Positions 39,862 through 45,867 of a stretch of DNA of 64,000 nucleotides are shown here, piece after piece (positions within the stretch are counted from its first letter, which is position 1; every line of letters begins with the position of its first letter). The stretch is from positions 32,853 to 96,852 of the forward strand of contig JAFVTW010000017.1 of assembly GCA_017503005.1 (NCBI GenBank), in the 5' to 3' direction. The notes under the pieces were generated by a model. That model was not told where the DNA came from, made no database searches, and saw only the letters and a program-made list of their open reading frames with translations. A program made the translations under genes and the position numbers. This stretch comes from Clostridia bacterium (GTDB lineage Bacteria; Bacillota; Clostridia; Christensenellales; UBA1242).

Positions 39862-40797
39862 ATGAAAACTAGAATCATTACAAGTGTATATTTGGTAGTA
39901 GCACTTATCGTAGCATTTGCTTCTAGAGTACTTACACCATATATTTTTGACTTGCTTATAGGTGCTATGGCTATAATGGGTGCTGTAGAAATGGGCAGGG
40001 TATTTGAGAGAAGTAAACAATACAACAATATTTATCTTGTAGGAACTTTTCCTGCAGTACTATATGTAGGTTTTGTGGTTGCTTTTACTAATTACTGGCA
40101 ATGGCAATACTATCTACTTTTAGTATTAGGTTTAATGGCTGTTTATTTTGTTATTTCCTTCTTAATTTCTGTTATTTTCAAAAAACATACAGAAAATGAA
40201 ATTTCAAAATATCAATCACCTGATAATGTATGTGTTTTTGCTCTAAAAAAGGCAATAAATACATCAATAATTGTTGTATATCCTACATTATTGTTTGCAA
40301 CAATGTTTTTACTAAATCATTTATTTGATTTGAGAATTAGTGAGAGATTGATTAATGCTCCATTTGATTACTATCTACTACTAACAGTGTTTATTGTTAC
40401 AATGTTTACAGATTCATTAGCATTGATTGTGGGTAGATTAGTAAAAGGGCCTAAATTGTGTCCTAGAATCAGCCCAAACAAAACTATTAGTGGTGCTATA
40501 GGTGGTTTGGCAGGTGGTGTATTAGGTGCATTTGTGGTGTATTGGATATTTACTATAAATGCTAATTTTGTAACAGTATTTAGTTCTGTTGCAAGTATTT
40601 GGACGGTTGTGCTATTTGGTTTGATTGGTTCTATAATCAGTCAATTAGGCGACCTGTTTGCTAGCTTTATAAAGCGCCGTGCTCGTGTTAAAGATTATGG
40701 TACATTGTTCCCAGGACATGGTGGAATTATGGACAGATTTGATGGTACGATTTTTAACTCAGCATTTGTTATGCTTTATATTTTGATTTTGTTGTAA
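39862..40797 (+). CDS. cdsA: Phosphatidate cytidylyltransferase
   Basis: KL.PRISPNKT..GAIGG, GDL..S.IKR...VKDYG...PGHGG..DRFD. Confidence 0.93.
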   Translation: MKTRIITSVYLVVALIVAFASRVLTPYIFDLLIGAMAIMGAVEMGRVFERSKQYNNIYLVGTFPAVLYVGFVVAFTNYWQWQYYLLLVLGLMAVYFVISFLISVIFKKHTENEISKYQSPDNVCVFALKKAINTSIIVVYPTLLFATMFLLNHLFDLRISERLINAPFDYYLLLTVFIVTMFTDSLALIVGRLVKGPKLCPRISPNKTISGAIGGLAGGVLGAFVVYWIFTINANFVTVFSSVASIWTVVLFGLIGSIISQLGDLFASFIKRRARVKDYGTLFPGHGGIMDRFDGTIFNSAFVMLYILILL

Positions 40798-40848
40798 TAA
40801 ATCACTTATTTAAATAATAAAATTTTATGAGAATATAAAAAGGAGTTC

Positions 40849-41916
40849 GTGTTGTATAGTAATTTATTAGGCATTTTTGATGGTGTGATAAAATTTGGTT
40901 ACATTTTAATAGCTATATTAATTTTGATGCTAATGATTACTATTCACGAATTTGGTCATTATTTAGCAGGTAAACTATTAAAGTTTAAAATTAACGAATT
41001 TTCTATCGGTTTTGGTAAGGCATTGTATACCAAAAAGAAAGAAAATGGCGAGATATTTTCTATAAGAGCTATTCCTTTAGGTGGTTATTGTGCATTTGAT
41101 GGTGAAGACACTCCTGATGAAAGTGCTGATTCATTCAATGCCCAAGCTCCATGGAAAAGATTGATTGTTTTGTTCTGCGGTGCATTCTTTAATTTCTTGT
41201 CTGCTATAATATTTAATATTGCATTGCTTGCAGTAATCGGTAATGGATATATCATGATTACCGATATAAAAGGTGTAAATAATGCTCCAGATAAATTGCA
41301 AAATGGTGACATTGTTACACATATAAATGGCGAAGAATTATCATTCTTTAATGGTGGAATAGGTGGTATTACTCAAGATATAAAAATAGGTGATGATATC
41401 ACTTTTACAATAAAGAGAAATGGTGAGATTCAAAAAGTTGTTGTTCAAAAATTTGCCGTTTTAGAAGATGGTAGCGAAGTAGGAAAACTAGGTGTTAATG
41501 GGCAAGCTTATGTAAGATTAAGTGTAGGTAATGCTATGCTAAAATCTGTACCATTTACATTTGAAATGTCGTGGGAAATTCTAGTAACATTCTTTGATTT
41601 GTTGACCGGTAAATATGGCATTGATGCTTTAGGTGGTCCTGTAACTACAATAGGTGCTATGGCTAATGCTGGTGCTACAAACTGGCTAAATTTGCTATTG
41701 TGGGTTCCTATGATAGCTGCTAATTTAGCAGTGTTTAACTTACTGCCTATTCCTGCTTTAGATGGTTCAAAAATGGTGTTTGTAGCTATAGAGTGGGTTA
41801 GAGGTAAACCTATAGATAGAGACTTAGAAAATAAAATCCATATGGTGGGTATTTTAGTATTGTTTGGTATTGTTATACTTGCAGATGGACTTCATATATT
41901 AGATTTTTTTAGATAA
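40849..41916 (+). CDS. rseP: Site-2 intramembrane metalloprotease RseP/RasP
   Basis: HEFGH, FSIGFG, PLGGY, PDZ-like middle, NLLPIPALDG. Confidence 0.95.
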   Translation: MLYSNLLGIFDGVIKFGYILIAILILMLMITIHEFGHYLAGKLLKFKINEFSIGFGKALYTKKKENGEIFSIRAIPLGGYCAFDGEDTPDESADSFNAQAPWKRLIVLFCGAFFNFLSAIIFNIALLAVIGNGYIMITDIKGVNNAPDKLQNGDIVTHINGEELSFFNGGIGGITQDIKIGDDITFTIKRNGEIQKVVVQKFAVLEDGSEVGKLGVNGQAYVRLSVGNAMLKSVPFTFEMSWEILVTFFDLLTGKYGIDALGGPVTTIGAMANAGATNWLNLLLWVPMIAANLAVFNLLPIPALDGSKMVFVAIEWVRGKPIDRDLENKIHMVGILVLFGIVILADGLHILDFFR

Positions 41917-41918
41917 AT

Positions 41919-43490
41919 ATGGATAAATTATTAGATTATTTAAAACTAAATGCTTCAAAGTTATTTGAATCAATAAAAATTGTTAATATTTCATACAACA
42001 AAGCCACTAATTCGTTAGTGGTTAAAGTTGTTTATTTGCCTGAATTTGATTTTAATCAAGATTGTAAAAATCAACTATGTGATTTGATAAATAAATTCCT
42101 TAGTTTGCCAGGACTTAAAATTGATATAAAATGCAAAAAGAGTATTGTTGACGACTCTGTGGCTAGAGAATTAGTTGAGTATTATTTAAACAAGTATTAT
42201 GCAAGTATTTTTACTACTATGCAAAAGAATGATTTGTCTTTTGATATAGCCGAAAATAATGTAAGAGTTAATATAAAAGTTGTTAATATTTTCAAGGATT
42301 ATTTACATAATAAAAACTTTGAAATTGACTTAAAAACATTTTTGGAAAAAACTTATTTTCAGTTGTTTGAAGTTAAACTTTATTCAAAGGAAGAGAGTAG
42401 TGGCTTTAGTGAAGAACTAGATGAATCTGCAAAACTATTTGAAGAAAAAGTGCAAAGTGATTTTGCAGAAATAGTTCCTGTTACATACGAATTGATTAAT
42501 TTGGAAGATTATCTGGGTGCTAAGACTGAAAATATTGCACTTGCTTCTACATCTCTTACTCCTAGTCACGAGAATATAACGGTAGCTGGTACTATCAGTT
42601 TTATTACAAAGAAAACTTTCATTTCTAAAAGAAAGAGTTCTAATGGTGAAGAAAAAGAGTATTTCAATTTTGTATTGAATGATAATTATGGTAAAGTAAA
42701 TTGTGTTTATTTTCCCCCAAAGGATTCTAAAGAAAAGTTTGAGGAGCTGACTGATGGTATGGTTATTGCTGTGGTTGGTGATGCAGAAGAATTTAATGGT
42801 AGAATGAATTTTAAGGTTAAAGGAATTGCAAAGTGTGAACTTCCAGAAAAGGAAGTTGTTGAGGTAGAGCAAAAATTTGAGAATGAAGAATATTTGTTTG
42901 TAAAACCTGAACCATATGTTAGTTTGGCTCAAGCAACTCTGTTTGATGTGGAAGTTGTAAATACAAATAAGTTTCTAAAAGAAAATGATTGTGTGGTATT
43001 TGATGTTGAGACCACTGGTCTAGATGCAAATACTTGTGAAATTATTGAATTTGGTGCAGTAAAGGTAAGAGATGGCAAAATGATAGAAACATTTAGTTGC
43101 TTGCTTAAACCGTCTGAACCTATTCCAGATGAAATTATAGAGTTGACCGGCATTACTAATGAAATGGTTGCAAACTGCTATGGCATTAAAGATGTTCTAC
43201 AAGATTTCTATAAATTTACTAGAGATTCGGTATTGGTTGCCTATAATATTGCATTTGACTATAAGTTTATTTATCTAGCAGGAGCAGCTCAAGGATACAA
43301 ATTTGACAACCAGCAAATTGATGCTATGGTTTTGGCTAAAAACAAACTAAAAGGTATAAAAAACTACAAATTAAAAACAGTTGCTACTGCATTAAATGTT
43401 TCTCTAGAAGGTGCACATAGAGCTGTAAACGATGCTATAGCGACAGCAGAAGTATTTGTGAAATTGGTTGATTCTGATACTGTGCTGTAA
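41919..43490 (+). CDS. PolC-derived protein: PolC N-terminal region, OB fold and DEDDh 3'-5' exonuclease; no PHP or polymerase domain
   Basis: Occupies the polC slot (rseP-X-rimP). OB-like stretch ITVAG.I...F.L.D..G...C..F....G..I.V.G. ExoI VVFDVETTG, ExoII VAYNIAFD, ExoIII HRAVNDA. Ends at 523 aa. Confidence 0.8.
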   Translation: MDKLLDYLKLNASKLFESIKIVNISYNKATNSLVVKVVYLPEFDFNQDCKNQLCDLINKFLSLPGLKIDIKCKKSIVDDSVARELVEYYLNKYYASIFTTMQKNDLSFDIAENNVRVNIKVVNIFKDYLHNKNFEIDLKTFLEKTYFQLFEVKLYSKEESSGFSEELDESAKLFEEKVQSDFAEIVPVTYELINLEDYLGAKTENIALASTSLTPSHENITVAGTISFITKKTFISKRKSSNGEEKEYFNFVLNDNYGKVNCVYFPPKDSKEKFEELTDGMVIAVVGDAEEFNGRMNFKVKGIAKCELPEKEVVEVEQKFENEEYLFVKPEPYVSLAQATLFDVEVVNTNKFLKENDCVVFDVETTGLDANTCEIIEFGAVKVRDGKMIETFSCLLKPSEPIPDEIIELTGITNEMVANCYGIKDVLQDFYKFTRDSVLVAYNIAFDYKFIYLAGAAQGYKFDNQQIDAMVLAKNKLKGIKNYKLKTVATALNVSLEGAHRAVNDAIATAEVFVKLVDSDTVL

Positions 43491-43570
43491 TAGATGGCTT
43501 TTTATGTGAAATTTTGAGAGCTATAAAATTTAAATTTTGGCTTGTATTAGCATATTTTTTATGATAATAC

Positions 43571-43599
43571 TTGAAATATGTGTATATGTATGATATACT
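43571..43599 (+). promoter_or_regulatory. SigA promoter of rimP-nusA-infB
   Basis: TTGAAA, 17 bp, TG-n-TATACT. Confidence 0.7.
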
Positions 43600-43622
43600 T
43601 ATAATGCTAATAATAACTATGC

Positions 43623-43651
43623 TAGGAGTGGGATAAGAAATCCCACTCCTA
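43623..43651 (+). ncRNA. rimP leader hairpin
   Basis: TAGGAGTGGGAT-aagaa-ATCCCACTCCTA; the GAGUGGG/CCCACUC stem is typical upstream of rimP in Firmicutes. Confidence 0.7.
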
Positions 43652-43667
43652 TTATTTAGGAGAGAAT

Positions 43668-44144
43668 ATGAACGGAAAGAAGGTAGTTACTGCTGTAAAA
43701 GAAATGGCAGGACAAATTGTTAGCGAATTAGGATATGTGCTTGTAGATGTTGAGTACAAGAAGCAAGTAAGTGGTATGGTTCTAGAGTTGTTTATAGATT
43801 CTAGCAATGGTATTACACTTGAAGATTGTGAAAAGGTATCTCGTGCACTTGATCAGCCATTAGATGAATTGAATCCAACAGCAGATGTTCCTTATTCGTT
43901 AAACATATCATCATTAGGTCTAGATAGACCATTAACAACAGAATATCAATTTCAAAAATACAAAGGTGAAGATGTAGAGTTGAAATTTTATCAACCATTA
44001 GCACCATTCAATAGAAAATTGATAGAATCCAAACTATTAGACTGGAATGATGAAAGTGTTACAGTTTTGGTAAATCCAGAAAATGAAACAGTTACAATAC
44101 AAAAAAAGATAATTGCACAAATTGTGCCAGTTATAAAATTTTAA
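43668..44144 (+). CDS. rimP: Ribosome maturation factor RimP
   Basis: L.DVEY.K, L..FID...GITLEDCE.VSR, Y.L..SS.GLDRPL. Confidence 0.93.
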   Translation: MNGKKVVTAVKEMAGQIVSELGYVLVDVEYKKQVSGMVLELFIDSSNGITLEDCEKVSRALDQPLDELNPTADVPYSLNISSLGLDRPLTTEYQFQKYKGEDVELKFYQPLAPFNRKLIESKLLDWNDESVTVLVNPENETVTIQKKIIAQIVPVIKF

Positions 44145-44156
44145 GGAGAAAATATA

Positions 44157-45290
44157 ATGATTAATAAAGATTTCTTTCAAGCATTAGACGATTTAGAAGT
44201 TCAAAAGGGAATTAACAAAGAGTTTTTTATGGCTGCACTAGAAGCAGCTTTGACAAGTGCATATAAGAAAAACTTTGGTGAAGCAAAAAGTGCTGCTGTT
44301 AAACTTAACCCTGAAAAACACAGTATCAAAATTTATTCTTACAAGACTGTAGTTGAAGAAGTGCTAGATCCAGACAAGGAAATGTCTTTAGCTGAAGCTA
44401 AGGCTATCAAGAAAAGTCATAAAGTTGGTGATGTTGTTCAACAAGAAGAAACACCTAAGAACTTTGGTAGAATAGCTGCTCAAACTGCAAAACAAGTTGT
44501 TATGCAAAGATTGAGAGAAGCAGAAAGAGAAAAAATTATGGGTGAAGTAAACACTAAACAAGATGAACTTTTGACCGGTGTAGTTAGAAGAGTTGAAGGT
44601 GAAAATGTTTATGTTGATTTAGGTATTACACAAGTAGAAGGTGTATTAGGACCTAAAGACAGAATCCCTGGCGAAAGATATACTATCAATAGTAGAGTAA
44701 AAGTATATGTAAAACAAATCAAAGAATCTTTCAATATGCCATATGTTCAATTAACAAGAACAAATCCTGGTTTTGTTAAAAAATTATTCGAAATCGAAGT
44801 TCCAGAAATTCAAACTGGTGAAGTTGAAATTAAGAGCATTGTTAGAGAAGCTGGTTATAGAACAAAAATTGCTGTTACATCATCTAATCCAAATTTAGAT
44901 TGTATAGGTGCTTGTGTTGGTAACAAAGGTATGAGAGTAAATGCAATCGTTAACGAATTAAATGGTGAAAAGATTGATATCGTTCCTTGGAGCGAAAACC
45001 CTGCTGAATTTATAGCTGCAGCTTTAAGTCCAGCAACCGTACTACATGTAAGTACAAATCTATTAGAAAAAACCAGTTTGGCTGTAGTTCCTGATGATAA
45101 ATTATCATTAGCTATAGGTAAGAGTGGTCAAAATGTAAGATTAGCTGCTAAACTTACAAACTGGAAAATCGATGTTAAGGCAAAATCTGCTGTTCCTTCA
45201 TTAAATTTAGATACCGAAGAAGATGAACAAAAAGGAAACGAATTTGGTAACCTATTTGATGATGAAGATGCTTTTGGCGATTTAAATTAA
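44157..45290 (+). CDS. nusA: Transcription termination factor NusA
   Basis: FGRIAAQTAKQV, FE.EVPEI, REAG.RTK.AV, LSLAIGK.GQN.RLAA.LT.WKID. Confidence 0.97.
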   Translation: MINKDFFQALDDLEVQKGINKEFFMAALEAALTSAYKKNFGEAKSAAVKLNPEKHSIKIYSYKTVVEEVLDPDKEMSLAEAKAIKKSHKVGDVVQQEETPKNFGRIAAQTAKQVVMQRLREAEREKIMGEVNTKQDELLTGVVRRVEGENVYVDLGITQVEGVLGPKDRIPGERYTINSRVKVYVKQIKESFNMPYVQLTRTNPGFVKKLFEIEVPEIQTGEVEIKSIVREAGYRTKIAVTSSNPNLDCIGACVGNKGMRVNAIVNELNGEKIDIVPWSENPAEFIAAALSPATVLHVSTNLLEKTSLAVVPDDKLSLAIGKSGQNVRLAAKLTNWKIDVKAKSAVPSLNLDTEEDEQKGNEFGNLFDDEDAFGDLN

Positions 45291-45308: not shown

Positions 45309-45581
45309 ATGAGCGAAAAGAAACAACCAACAAGAACATGTATCGCATGTCGTAAACAAAATGATAAAAGAAATTTAGTTCGTATCGTAAAATCCGAAAC
45401 AGACATTAGGCTAGATTTTTCTGGTAGAATGAATGGTAGAGGAGCATATATTTGTAATGACATTGCTTGTGTAGAAAAGTGCATTAAGTCAAAAGCTTTA
45501 AATAGAGCATTTTCTTGCAATGTAGAAGCGGGTGTTTACGATAAGTTGAAGGAGGATTTCCTTGCAGGAAACAATCAATAA
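45309..45581 (+). CDS. ylxR: YlxR/RnpM family protein
   Basis: P.RTC..CR...K..L.RIV, GRGAY.C, L.RAF. Confidence 0.92.
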   Translation: MSEKKQPTRTCIACRKQNDKRNLVRIVKSETDIRLDFSGRMNGRGAYICNDIACVEKCIKSKALNRAFSCNVEAGVYDKLKEDFLAGNNQ

Positions 45582-45867
45582 ATTAAAATCATATTTTGGA
45601 TTTTCTATCAAAAGCAATTCAATATTGTTTGGTTCTGATAATATTATCAAGACTAGAAAAAATCTTGATGTCGTGATTTTTTGTAGTACTGCTACTGACA
45701 AACATATTTATCCTATACAAAACAAAGGGGTAAAATGTGTAAAACTAAAAAGTATTTTGTTGAGCGAATTAGTTGGAAGAGATAATGTTAAAGTTGTTGG
45801 TATAAAAAATTTAGGATTATCAAAGGCGATACTTTCGTTTAAAGATATGTTTGAGACATTAGAGTAA
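45562..45867 (+). CDS. Divergent L7Ae/YlxQ-family RNA-binding protein
   Basis: Position between ylxR and infB; G...K......G and L...VG......V.I...G.S..I pattern. Confidence 0.65.
   Translation: MQETINKLKSYFGFSIKSNSILFGSDNIIKTRKNLDVVIFCSTATDKHIYPIQNKGVKCVKLKSILLSELVGRDNVKVVGIKNLGLSKAILSFKDMFETLE

Follow-up and report, generated by a model that had tools for sequence, protein, structure and literature searches.

We describe a gene for a 523-amino-acid (aa) protein, here called mini-PolC, in a stretch of 64,000 nucleotides from a Clostridia bacterium (GenBank assembly GCA_017503005.1, contig JAFVTW010000017.1, positions 32,853 to 96,852). This whole stretch is called the window. It belongs to a draft genome of 1.23 Mb in 24 contigs that is 94.3% complete. 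The gene is almost certainly a direct descendant of polC. The ancestor of a large clade of gut Clostridia with small genomes, all in one order, would have lost the PHP domain and the polymerase core and kept a double KH-like N-terminal domain (NTD), an OB fold and a DEDDh exonuclease as a protein of 500 to 560 aa. We have high confidence that DnaE1 is the sole C-family (replicative) polymerase in this short-form clade. The best explanation overall, which we favor by a small degree, is that this polC descendant acts as a replisome-associated accessory 3'-5' exonuclease.

Domain make-up and descent from PolC

Mini-PolC is encoded by an open reading frame (ORF) of 523 codons with no internal stops. 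Its features are listed below by window position.

41919..43490 (+), the whole mini-PolC gene, 523 aa plus stop (ORF; full-length homologues)
41919..42146 (+), N-terminal subdomain a, residues 1-76, alpha-beta-beta-alpha-beta, type II KH-like (AF2, hhalign)
42147..42389 (+), N-terminal subdomain b, residues 77-157, alpha-beta-beta-alpha-alpha-beta, type II KH-like (AF2, hhalign)
42483..42839 (+), OB fold, residues 189-307 (Pfam PF01336, hhalign, Foldseek)
42840..42983 (+), flexible linker, residues 308-355 (48 residues), where the N-terminal half of PHP would be (predicted local distance difference test [pLDDT] 63-74, no secondary structure)
42891..42917 (+), linker island Y325-x-x-V-x-P330-E-P-Y333 (P330 invariant in 42/42 family members)
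42930..42944 (+), candidate beta-clamp-binding motif Q338-A-T-L-F342 (conserved in the linker)
42984..43472 (+), DEDDh 3'-5' exonuclease, residues 356-518 (Pfam RNase_T, TIGR00573, PDB 2p1j)
43002-43004, 43008-43010, 43257-43259, 43416-43418 and 43431-43433 (+), predicted catalytic codons for D362, E364, D447, H500 and D505

Pfam matched the OB fold and RNase_T in mini-PolC and gave no match to PHP or DNA_pol3_alpha (PF07733). The tRNA_anti-codon OB model (PF01336) covered residues 221-303 (E 8.5e-9) and matched 40 of the 42 members of the mini-PolC family. RNase_T covered residues 359-513 (E 1.4e-34). The exonuclease domain scored 111.5 bits with TIGR00573, for which the cut-off is 71.5, and matched PDB 2p1j at E 7e-33. 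The best NCBIfam model was PolC (NF001688), at model positions 415-586 only, with 173 bits against a cut-off of 873. The PHP model PF02811 matched neither mini-PolC nor the 42-member family, and the HxH motif is absent from residues 304-355. A preliminary description of the gene, made by reading the ORF, had proposed this same composition, and the hidden Markov model scan agrees with it. The nuclease motifs that it quoted are all in the sequence (FDVETTG, 361-367; YNIAFD, 442-447; HRAVNDA, 500-506). The five DEDDh residues are invariant in 42/42 aligned family members and intact in 22/25 genome-derived sequences. The AlphaFold model of the whole protein (pLDDT 87) contains two KH-like subdomains, a long helix, an OB barrel, a disordered linker and the nuclease. 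The C-terminus lies 5 residues past the last helix of the exonuclease fold.

To compare the protein with PolC, 21 short proteins were aligned by hhalign to 20 full PolCs of the same order, domain by domain. The NTD matched the PolC NTD over 147 collinear columns (E 3.2e-11). The OB fold matched the PolC OB fold at E 4.9e-19, and the exonuclease matched the PolC exonuclease at E 5.4e-73. The three matches are collinear, and all 22 off-target domain pairs had E values of 0.019 or higher. Each subdomain also matched by itself: subdomain a to PolC NTD columns 9-76 (E 7.9e-7) and subdomain b to columns 89-163 (E 2.6e-6). The PolC-like N-terminal region of the preliminary description is therefore recovered by profile-profile comparison. 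Linker residues 308-355 had no similarity to the N-terminal half of PolC PHP (E 0.23). Since the linker lacks this similarity and the protein ends 5 residues past the exonuclease, sequence was lost on both flanks of the nuclease, as had been claimed. A PHP vestige in the linker was considered after FVKPEPY had aligned with QAFPDAY of the PolC PHP domain in a global profile alignment. It was rejected on the E of 0.23 for the linker alone.

The NTD is matched more weakly by general models. The Pfam models of the PolC N-terminus matched 1/42 members (DNA_pol3_a_NII) and 0/42 members (NI). The family profile matched the exonuclease in the PDB and, weakly, YhaM for the OB fold; the NTD was not found there. 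AF2 models of the N-terminal subdomains had pLDDT values of 87-93. The NTD model had no Foldseek match at E <= 0.001, and the best was the tandem KH of archaeal NusA (2e-3). VIA-wide, the NTD had Z values of 8-10 to the KH-like domains of Era, S3, RimP and KhpB, with a background of 7-8. Subdomain a reached Z 8-9 to RimP-N, S3 KH and KhpB, and subdomain b, compared to Era-type KH domains, reached 9.9 and 8.6. The modeled structure thus agrees with a KH-like fold, and the matches are not specific. The best PDB match in Foldseek was E. faecium PolC (9qpc_A), with 398 columns across the OB fold and exonuclease. The PolC NTD is unresolved in the solved cryo-electron microscopy (cryo-EM) structures (PMC12592400). 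Because it is unresolved in 9QPC, no direct structural comparison of the two NTDs was possible.

The gene occupies the position of polC. Loci were compared from 20 genomes with the long gene and 20 with the short gene, all of the same order. They share the order cdsA-(dxr)-rseP-(ispG)-X-rimP-nusA-ylxR-infB, where X is the long or the short gene. X is a polC of 1331-1491 aa with this order in 13/20 long-gene relatives, and the other 7 have no adjoining rimP-nusA. It is a gene for 502-550 aa in the window and in 18/20 other short-form loci; among the fetched stretches, 2 are without rseP and 1 is without rimP. The ORF and the Pfam assignments of its neighbors confirm that the window gene fills the polC slot between rseP and rimP. 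Mini-PolC is supported as the positional orthologue of polC.

The gene is under purifying selection. The ratio of nonsynonymous to synonymous substitution rates (dN/dS) was estimated from congeneric pairs. Three of the 4 pairs had dS above 1.5, and only one (L131/L134) was unsaturated, with dS 0.67. Its whole-gene dN/dS was 0.064, below the bound of 1 that the preliminary description had set as a check. By domain, it was 0.080 for the NTD, 0.043 for the OB fold, 0.150 for the linker and 0.036 for the exonuclease. Neighboring genes in the same pair had values of 0.009-0.061. In the three saturated pairs, dN was far below dS.

The sequence was also retrieved independently. Of the 24 sequencing runs listed, 20 contain the stretch wholly or partly, and none of these is an RNA run; they come from metagenomes of animal guts in 9 studies. 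We compared the window with four runs, each from a different study and without a flag as a possible source. One of these, from another study, gave a contig of 5,532 bases that covers 40800-44300 with 44 substitutions and no gap. Within the gene, 15 of the 20 differences listed are synonymous. A second run bridges the rseP/mini-PolC junction, and a third bridges the mini-PolC/rimP junction. Neither a mis-join nor a decaying fragment is compatible with these data. A mis-join had been named as one finding that would overturn the architecture, and independent assemblies across both junctions dispose of it. Two joints in run X11 (41084>43037 and 41106>43232) were considered as deletions. Their sides measure 21 and 27 letters, with a risk of another organism or a repeat, and they were not taken. 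A pattern scan of metagenome contigs for close relatives returned 75 pattern matches, none of which was a relative.

Distribution and polymerase content

We sampled 101 genomes from 42 families of the order Christensenellales. The short form, of about 500-560 aa, was found in 44 genomes from 16 families, and variants of it were found in 4 more genomes from 2 families. Full PolC was found in 53 genomes from 24 families, as a frame longer than 1100 aa or, in two poor assemblies, as fragments. None of the 42 families contained both forms. Several of the short-form genes sit on contigs of 0.2-0.6 Mb. The preliminary description had asked whether relatives share the architecture between rseP and rimP, and they do. 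Across the class, 150 sampled genomes were scored, and only the 6 from Christensenellales gave full-length matches. In the other 144, matches cover the exonuclease part alone, mostly in frames of 1300-1600 aa.

No exonuclease-profile match at E <= 1e-15 was retrieved from 24 of these 150 class genomes. They include whole families (for example f43, f56, f65, f82 and f86). Such families may be DnaE1-only without a remnant, or they may carry PolC without an exonuclease.

Database searches returned more relatives. A word-indexed search gave 315, and among the matches listed the lengths were 430-551 aa, mostly with whole-query coverage and with identity down to about 32%. Their database names are generic ("exonuclease domain-containing protein" or "hypothetical"). 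The best 150 clusters (50% identity) from an exhaustive profile search were 257-573 aa long, mostly full-length at about 500-547 aa, with E <= 8e-109. In the ESM Atlas, this domain set was present in at least 11 clusters, all from Bacillota and 506-530 aa long.

Two unrooted trees were made. The DnaE tree contained 41 rows: 21 short-form (the window and 20 of the 43 other short-form genomes), 19 from the 53 PolC genomes and 1 from the variant family f26. The NusA+RimP+RseP+CdsA tree contained 39 rows, 21 of them short and 18 long, after the removal of two long rows with too few columns. In both trees a single branch splits the short from the full form, with a Shimodaira-Hasegawa-like approximate likelihood ratio test (SH-aLRT) value of 100. 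One change from polC to the short form therefore suffices. The short form is taken as derived because other sampled Clostridia carry full PolC.

The window genome contains one DNA_pol3_alpha match, in a protein of 1175 aa on contig C17. This protein has an N-terminal PHP motif and an OB fold near its C-terminus, which is the domain order of DnaE. A full polC was not found in the window genome, where the PolC model matched only the mini-PolC exonuclease and the PHP and palm of DnaE. Mini-PolC is the sole RNase_T-type exonuclease detected. The genome also encodes dnaN, dnaX, holB, polA, mutS and mutL. Across the order, PF07733 matched exactly once in 46/48 short-form genomes, variants included. 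The exceptions are G058, with no match, and G081, with two stretches, of which the one listed is in a DnaE-length frame of 1291 aa. In every one of the 53 PolC genomes, PF07733 matched 2 to 7 times. The genome-wide search for dnaE and full-length polC thus found the first and not the second, and the proposal that this lineage replicates with DnaE is supported by the single 1175-aa protein and by the same layout in 46/48 short-form genomes.

Strong strand bias is usually tied to PolC-bearing genomes. It is strong in the window genome although the PolC polymerase is gone. The window contains 51 long ORFs on the forward strand and 3 on the reverse strand, and its cumulative GC skew increases from end to end. 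For the genome as a whole, a rough ORF-based estimate is that about 76% of 960 long ORFs point the same way as the local GC skew.

Candidate functions of the remnant

The linker contains a candidate clamp-binding motif. Q338 is invariant in 42/42 family members. Q..[LMIF]F is present in 36/42, and the remaining 6 have QxNFL; among genome-derived members, it is present in 18/21. Outside its islands (Y325..Y333 and Q338-x-N/T-L-F342), the linker is variable and disordered, with pLDDT values of 63-74. QATLF at 338-342 fits the clamp-binder consensus Q-x-x-[LMI]-x?-F in a flexible segment. The window sequence QATLFD closely resembles QCSLFD of its own DnaE. DnaE encodes G-Q-x-S-[LMF]-F in 40/41 aligned rows, with QFDMF in G068 and a gap in G095. 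All 20 full PolCs have Q-x-[STC]-[LF]-[FL] in the final 5-14 residues; in 11 of the 20 it is the C-terminus itself. QLSLF of B. subtilis PolC and QMGLF of its DnaE are clamp-binding motifs that have been used experimentally (PMC12309361). The C-terminal motif of PolC was necessarily lost because the polymerase was lost. The linker Q-x-x-L-F may be a newly placed clamp-binding motif.

Mini-PolC may work as a clamp-tethered accessory 3'-5' exonuclease for DnaE1 at the fork, a mechanism that we would accept or doubt with equal readiness. The Q-x-x-L-F peptide of the disordered linker would dock the remnant on the beta clamp. It would stand in for the lost motif at the extreme C-terminus of PolC. 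The OB fold would hold single-stranded template, and the DEDDh site would remove, in trans, mispaired or frayed 3' ends made by DnaE1. The NTD probably supplies a protein contact. Such a contact would account for the constant retention of the gene, even with a dead nuclease. There is a precedent in B. subtilis: within a complex of DnaE, PolC and template, errors made by DnaE are proofread in trans by the exonuclease of PolC (PMC5627055).

The variant families bear on this reading. Family f26 (3/3 genomes) encodes proteins of 485-504 aa at L192:1024-2481(-), L197:964-2478(-) and L194:913-2415(-). They keep the NTD (hhalign 1.4e-21) and the OB fold (1.3e-19). The C-terminal domain is homologous to the nuclease (6e-13), with every DEDDh residue replaced. 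Members of f26 are 28-30% identical, and dS among them is saturated, too far for an estimate of selection. Family f38 is known from one genome, G038, which is 85% complete. It encodes a protein of 448 aa at L193:1486-2832(-), with the NTD, an intact DEDDh nuclease and a low-complexity stretch rich in S, T, P and Q in place of the OB fold. Since f26 lost catalysis and f38 lost the OB fold, the NTD is the one part common to all forms. One f26 genome (G025) also encodes, at other places, two separate exonuclease ORFs, one of 450 aa and one of 193 aa.

Several of these observations weigh against an accessory proofreader. The f26 protein persists without its DEDDh residues, so nuclease activity is dispensable in at least one lineage. 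In mycobacteria, DnaE1 proofreads by itself. The nine-residue metal site of DnaE PHP (HHDHEHCDH) is complete in 41/41 sequences from both the short-form and PolC clades, so the remnant need not be the sole proofreader. A complete PHP signature is taken as the mark of an active PHP proofreader (PMC12926913). DnaE1 here may therefore proofread by itself, in which case the remnant nuclease is not obviously needed for fidelity. The candidate motif is missing from 3/21 genome-derived members. Mini-PolC evolves fast, with 30-32% identity inside the family of the window genome, compared to 59% for DnaE. Mini-PolC also does not contain the C-terminal polymerase-binding tail of epsilon. The absence of this tail, with a DnaE1 that appears able to proofread for itself, weakens a strictly epsilon-like reading. 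The preliminary description had suggested a stand-alone proofreading or tethering subunit. From its sequence the remnant could be one, by steps that we infer.

Other explanations account for parts of the same evidence. The protein could be a non-catalytic replisome organizer, with an essential NTD and OB fold that contact DnaX, DnaE, primase, helicase or the single-stranded DNA template, and with an optional exonuclease. We consider this unlikely. It would suit the f26 proteins, which keep the NTD and OB fold beside an exonuclease without DEDDh residues, and the presence of the NTD in every variant, including the OB-less G038 form. It also fits the NTD dN/dS of 0.080 and the binding of PolC by DnaX in B. 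subtilis (review PMC13220808). It does not fit the invariance of DEDDh in 42/42 members and its retention in 22/25 genome-derived ones, nor an exonuclease that is the most constrained domain (dN/dS 0.036). The NTD is only 15-21% identical across families, which is unusual for a strict protein interface. The PolC NTD has no known partner, and it is unresolved in cryo-EM (PMC12592400). The contact of the NTD is also the core of a broader reading. Mini-PolC could be a new replisome subunit, both a clamp-tethered trans-proofreader and an organizer of the DnaE1 replicase. The NTD contact, to the clamp loader or to DnaE for instance, would then be essential and the real reason for retention, and DnaE1 plus a PolC remnant would be a fourth replicase layout. 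This reading is possible, and we hold it tentatively.

A clamp-recruited exonuclease could also work off the fork, in DNA repair or end processing (MutS/MutL excision or 3'-flap trimming), and the locus would then be a historical leftover. All variants keep the PolC-specific NTD, for which no repair role is known, and the dead-nuclease family f26 persists. Neither is expected of a repair nuclease, and the precedent for a PolC exonuclease is trans proofreading of DnaE (PMC5627055). The combination of an OB fold, DEDDh and a clamp-like motif does fit clamp-recruited repair nucleases. MutS, MutL and PolA are encoded in the window genome, and DnaE1 carries its own PHP proofreader signature. On this evidence a repair role is doubtful. 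That the gene is an artefact (a mis-assembly, a recent polC pseudogene fragment or half of a split polC) is extremely improbable. In favor of an artefact, the window genome is a draft of 24 contigs at 94% completeness. The same architecture was retrieved from 44/101 genomes, several times on contigs of 0.2-0.6 Mb, and the independent contig spans the region with no gap. Two other runs bridge one junction each, and dN/dS is 0.064. A split polC would leave its other half elsewhere. The PF07733 match in 46/48 short-form genomes is of the DnaE type only, in DnaE order with a C-terminal OB fold. The window genome itself contains no PolC-model match beyond the exonuclease and the DnaE-type PHP and palm. 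The accessory exonuclease remains our preferred explanation.

Surveys of bacterial replicases (PMC3919608; PMC12926913, with more than 3000 complete genomes) describe three sets: DnaE1-only, PolC+DnaE1 and PolC+DnaE3. The preliminary description knew of no account of the layout found here. No PolC-derived NTD-OB-exonuclease protein was described in the literature searched, of which partial texts were available; the supplementary tables of PMC3919608 and PMC12926913 might hold a mention. DnaE1-only Clostridia and PolCs without an exonuclease are already in print (PMC3919608). The new part, as far as these texts extend, is the clade-wide stand-alone NTD-OB-exonuclease architecture of a PolC/DnaQ-type exonuclease. 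The short-form clade would score as DnaE1-only in such surveys, yet it keeps three PolC domains under selection.

The clade is a natural experiment in which the NTD, OB fold and exonuclease of PolC are parted from the polymerase. The role of the NTD and trans proofreading can be tested on a small soluble protein. If the new-subunit reading is true, the clade is a natural dissection of the accessory functions of PolC. The apparent re-creation of the clamp motif elsewhere in the protein and the dead-nuclease lineage illustrate how an essential enzyme becomes an accessory factor. PolC is a target of antibiotics in clinical development that are said to act on low-GC Bacillota (PMC13003532; PMC12592400). 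A widespread clade of gut Bacillota without the PolC polymerase lacks this drug target, which matters for reading effects on the microbiome.

Surrounding features and known systems

The features around the gene are listed below.

40849..41916 (+), rseP (M50 site-2 protease), upstream neighbor; its stop is 2 bases before the mini-PolC ATG
43571..43599 (+), promoter-like site TTGAAA-17-TATACT with TG; matches the consensus, at chance frequency for the region
43623..43651 (+), 12-bp stem-loop directly 5' of the rimP ribosome-binding site; no Rfam family
43668..44144 (+), rimP, downstream neighbor, followed by nusA, ylxR and infB

A rimP promoter had been placed about 100 bp past the mini-PolC stop. 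A promoter-like site was found there, at 81-109 bp past the stop, in a spacer to rimP of 177 bp. Such sites are no more frequent in the region than in shuffled sequence (21 observed, 20.3 expected), and the promoter itself is not supported. The stem-loop at 43623-43651 is G+C-rich. It ends 16 bases 5' of the rimP start codon, overlapping the approach to the ribosome-binding site. It may act as leader or attenuator for the rimP-nusA-infB operon, or else terminate the gene before it. An Rfam scan of this hairpin gave no family, and its sole match was a chance snoRNA model (E 0.043). An ORF of 101 aa at 45562-45867, in the ylxR/infB interval, had no Pfam match at E <= 1e-5. Its position is kept in most short-form loci.

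The locus also differs among families in two isoprenoid genes. Elsewhere in the order, in short-form and PolC-bearing families alike, dxr is present in the cdsA/rseP interval and ispG (GcpE) in the rseP/polC interval. Both are missing at the locus in the window (39862-41919) and in three other genomes of its family (loci L117, L119 and L123, compared with L096 and L118). A search of the whole window genome, which is 94% complete, did not find GcpE. This hints that the methylerythritol phosphate (MEP) isoprenoid pathway was lost in the 0.9-1.2 Mb lineage of the window.

Mini-PolC shares features with several known systems. Full PolC, as in B. subtilis and E. faecium (9QPC), has the same rseP-polC-rimP locus and the same order of NTD, OB fold and exonuclease. 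Mini-PolC differs from it in that it contains no PHP, palm, thumb, fingers, HhH or C-terminal clamp motif. It has 523 aa compared to about 1400 and cannot polymerize DNA. DnaQ (epsilon) of E. coli and stand-alone DnaQ-like proteins have the same DEDDh fold and residues, also on a polypeptide separate from a DnaE-type polymerase. Epsilon carries a short clamp-binding peptide next to its nuclease domain. Mini-PolC instead derives from PolC, carries an NTD and an OB fold in front of the nuclease and has its candidate clamp motif before the nuclease and not after it. It does not contain the C-terminal segment by which epsilon binds the PHP domain of alpha. We know of no theta or HOT partner for mini-PolC.

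PolC is absent from some Clostridia, which have one DnaE1, and the architecture of clostridial PolC varies (Timinskas et al. 2014, PMC3919608). The variants described there lack the exonuclease and are thus the opposite of mini-PolC; a retained NTD-OB-exonuclease protein is not mentioned in the available text. The closest functional parallel is trans proofreading in B. subtilis (Paschalis et al. 2017, PMC5627055). There PolC is complete and essential and DnaE is the PHP-inactive DnaE3, whereas here the partner would be a PHP-intact DnaE1. In that system a PolC-type exonuclease acts on the 3' ends of DnaE, and this is an activity that mini-PolC could have kept.

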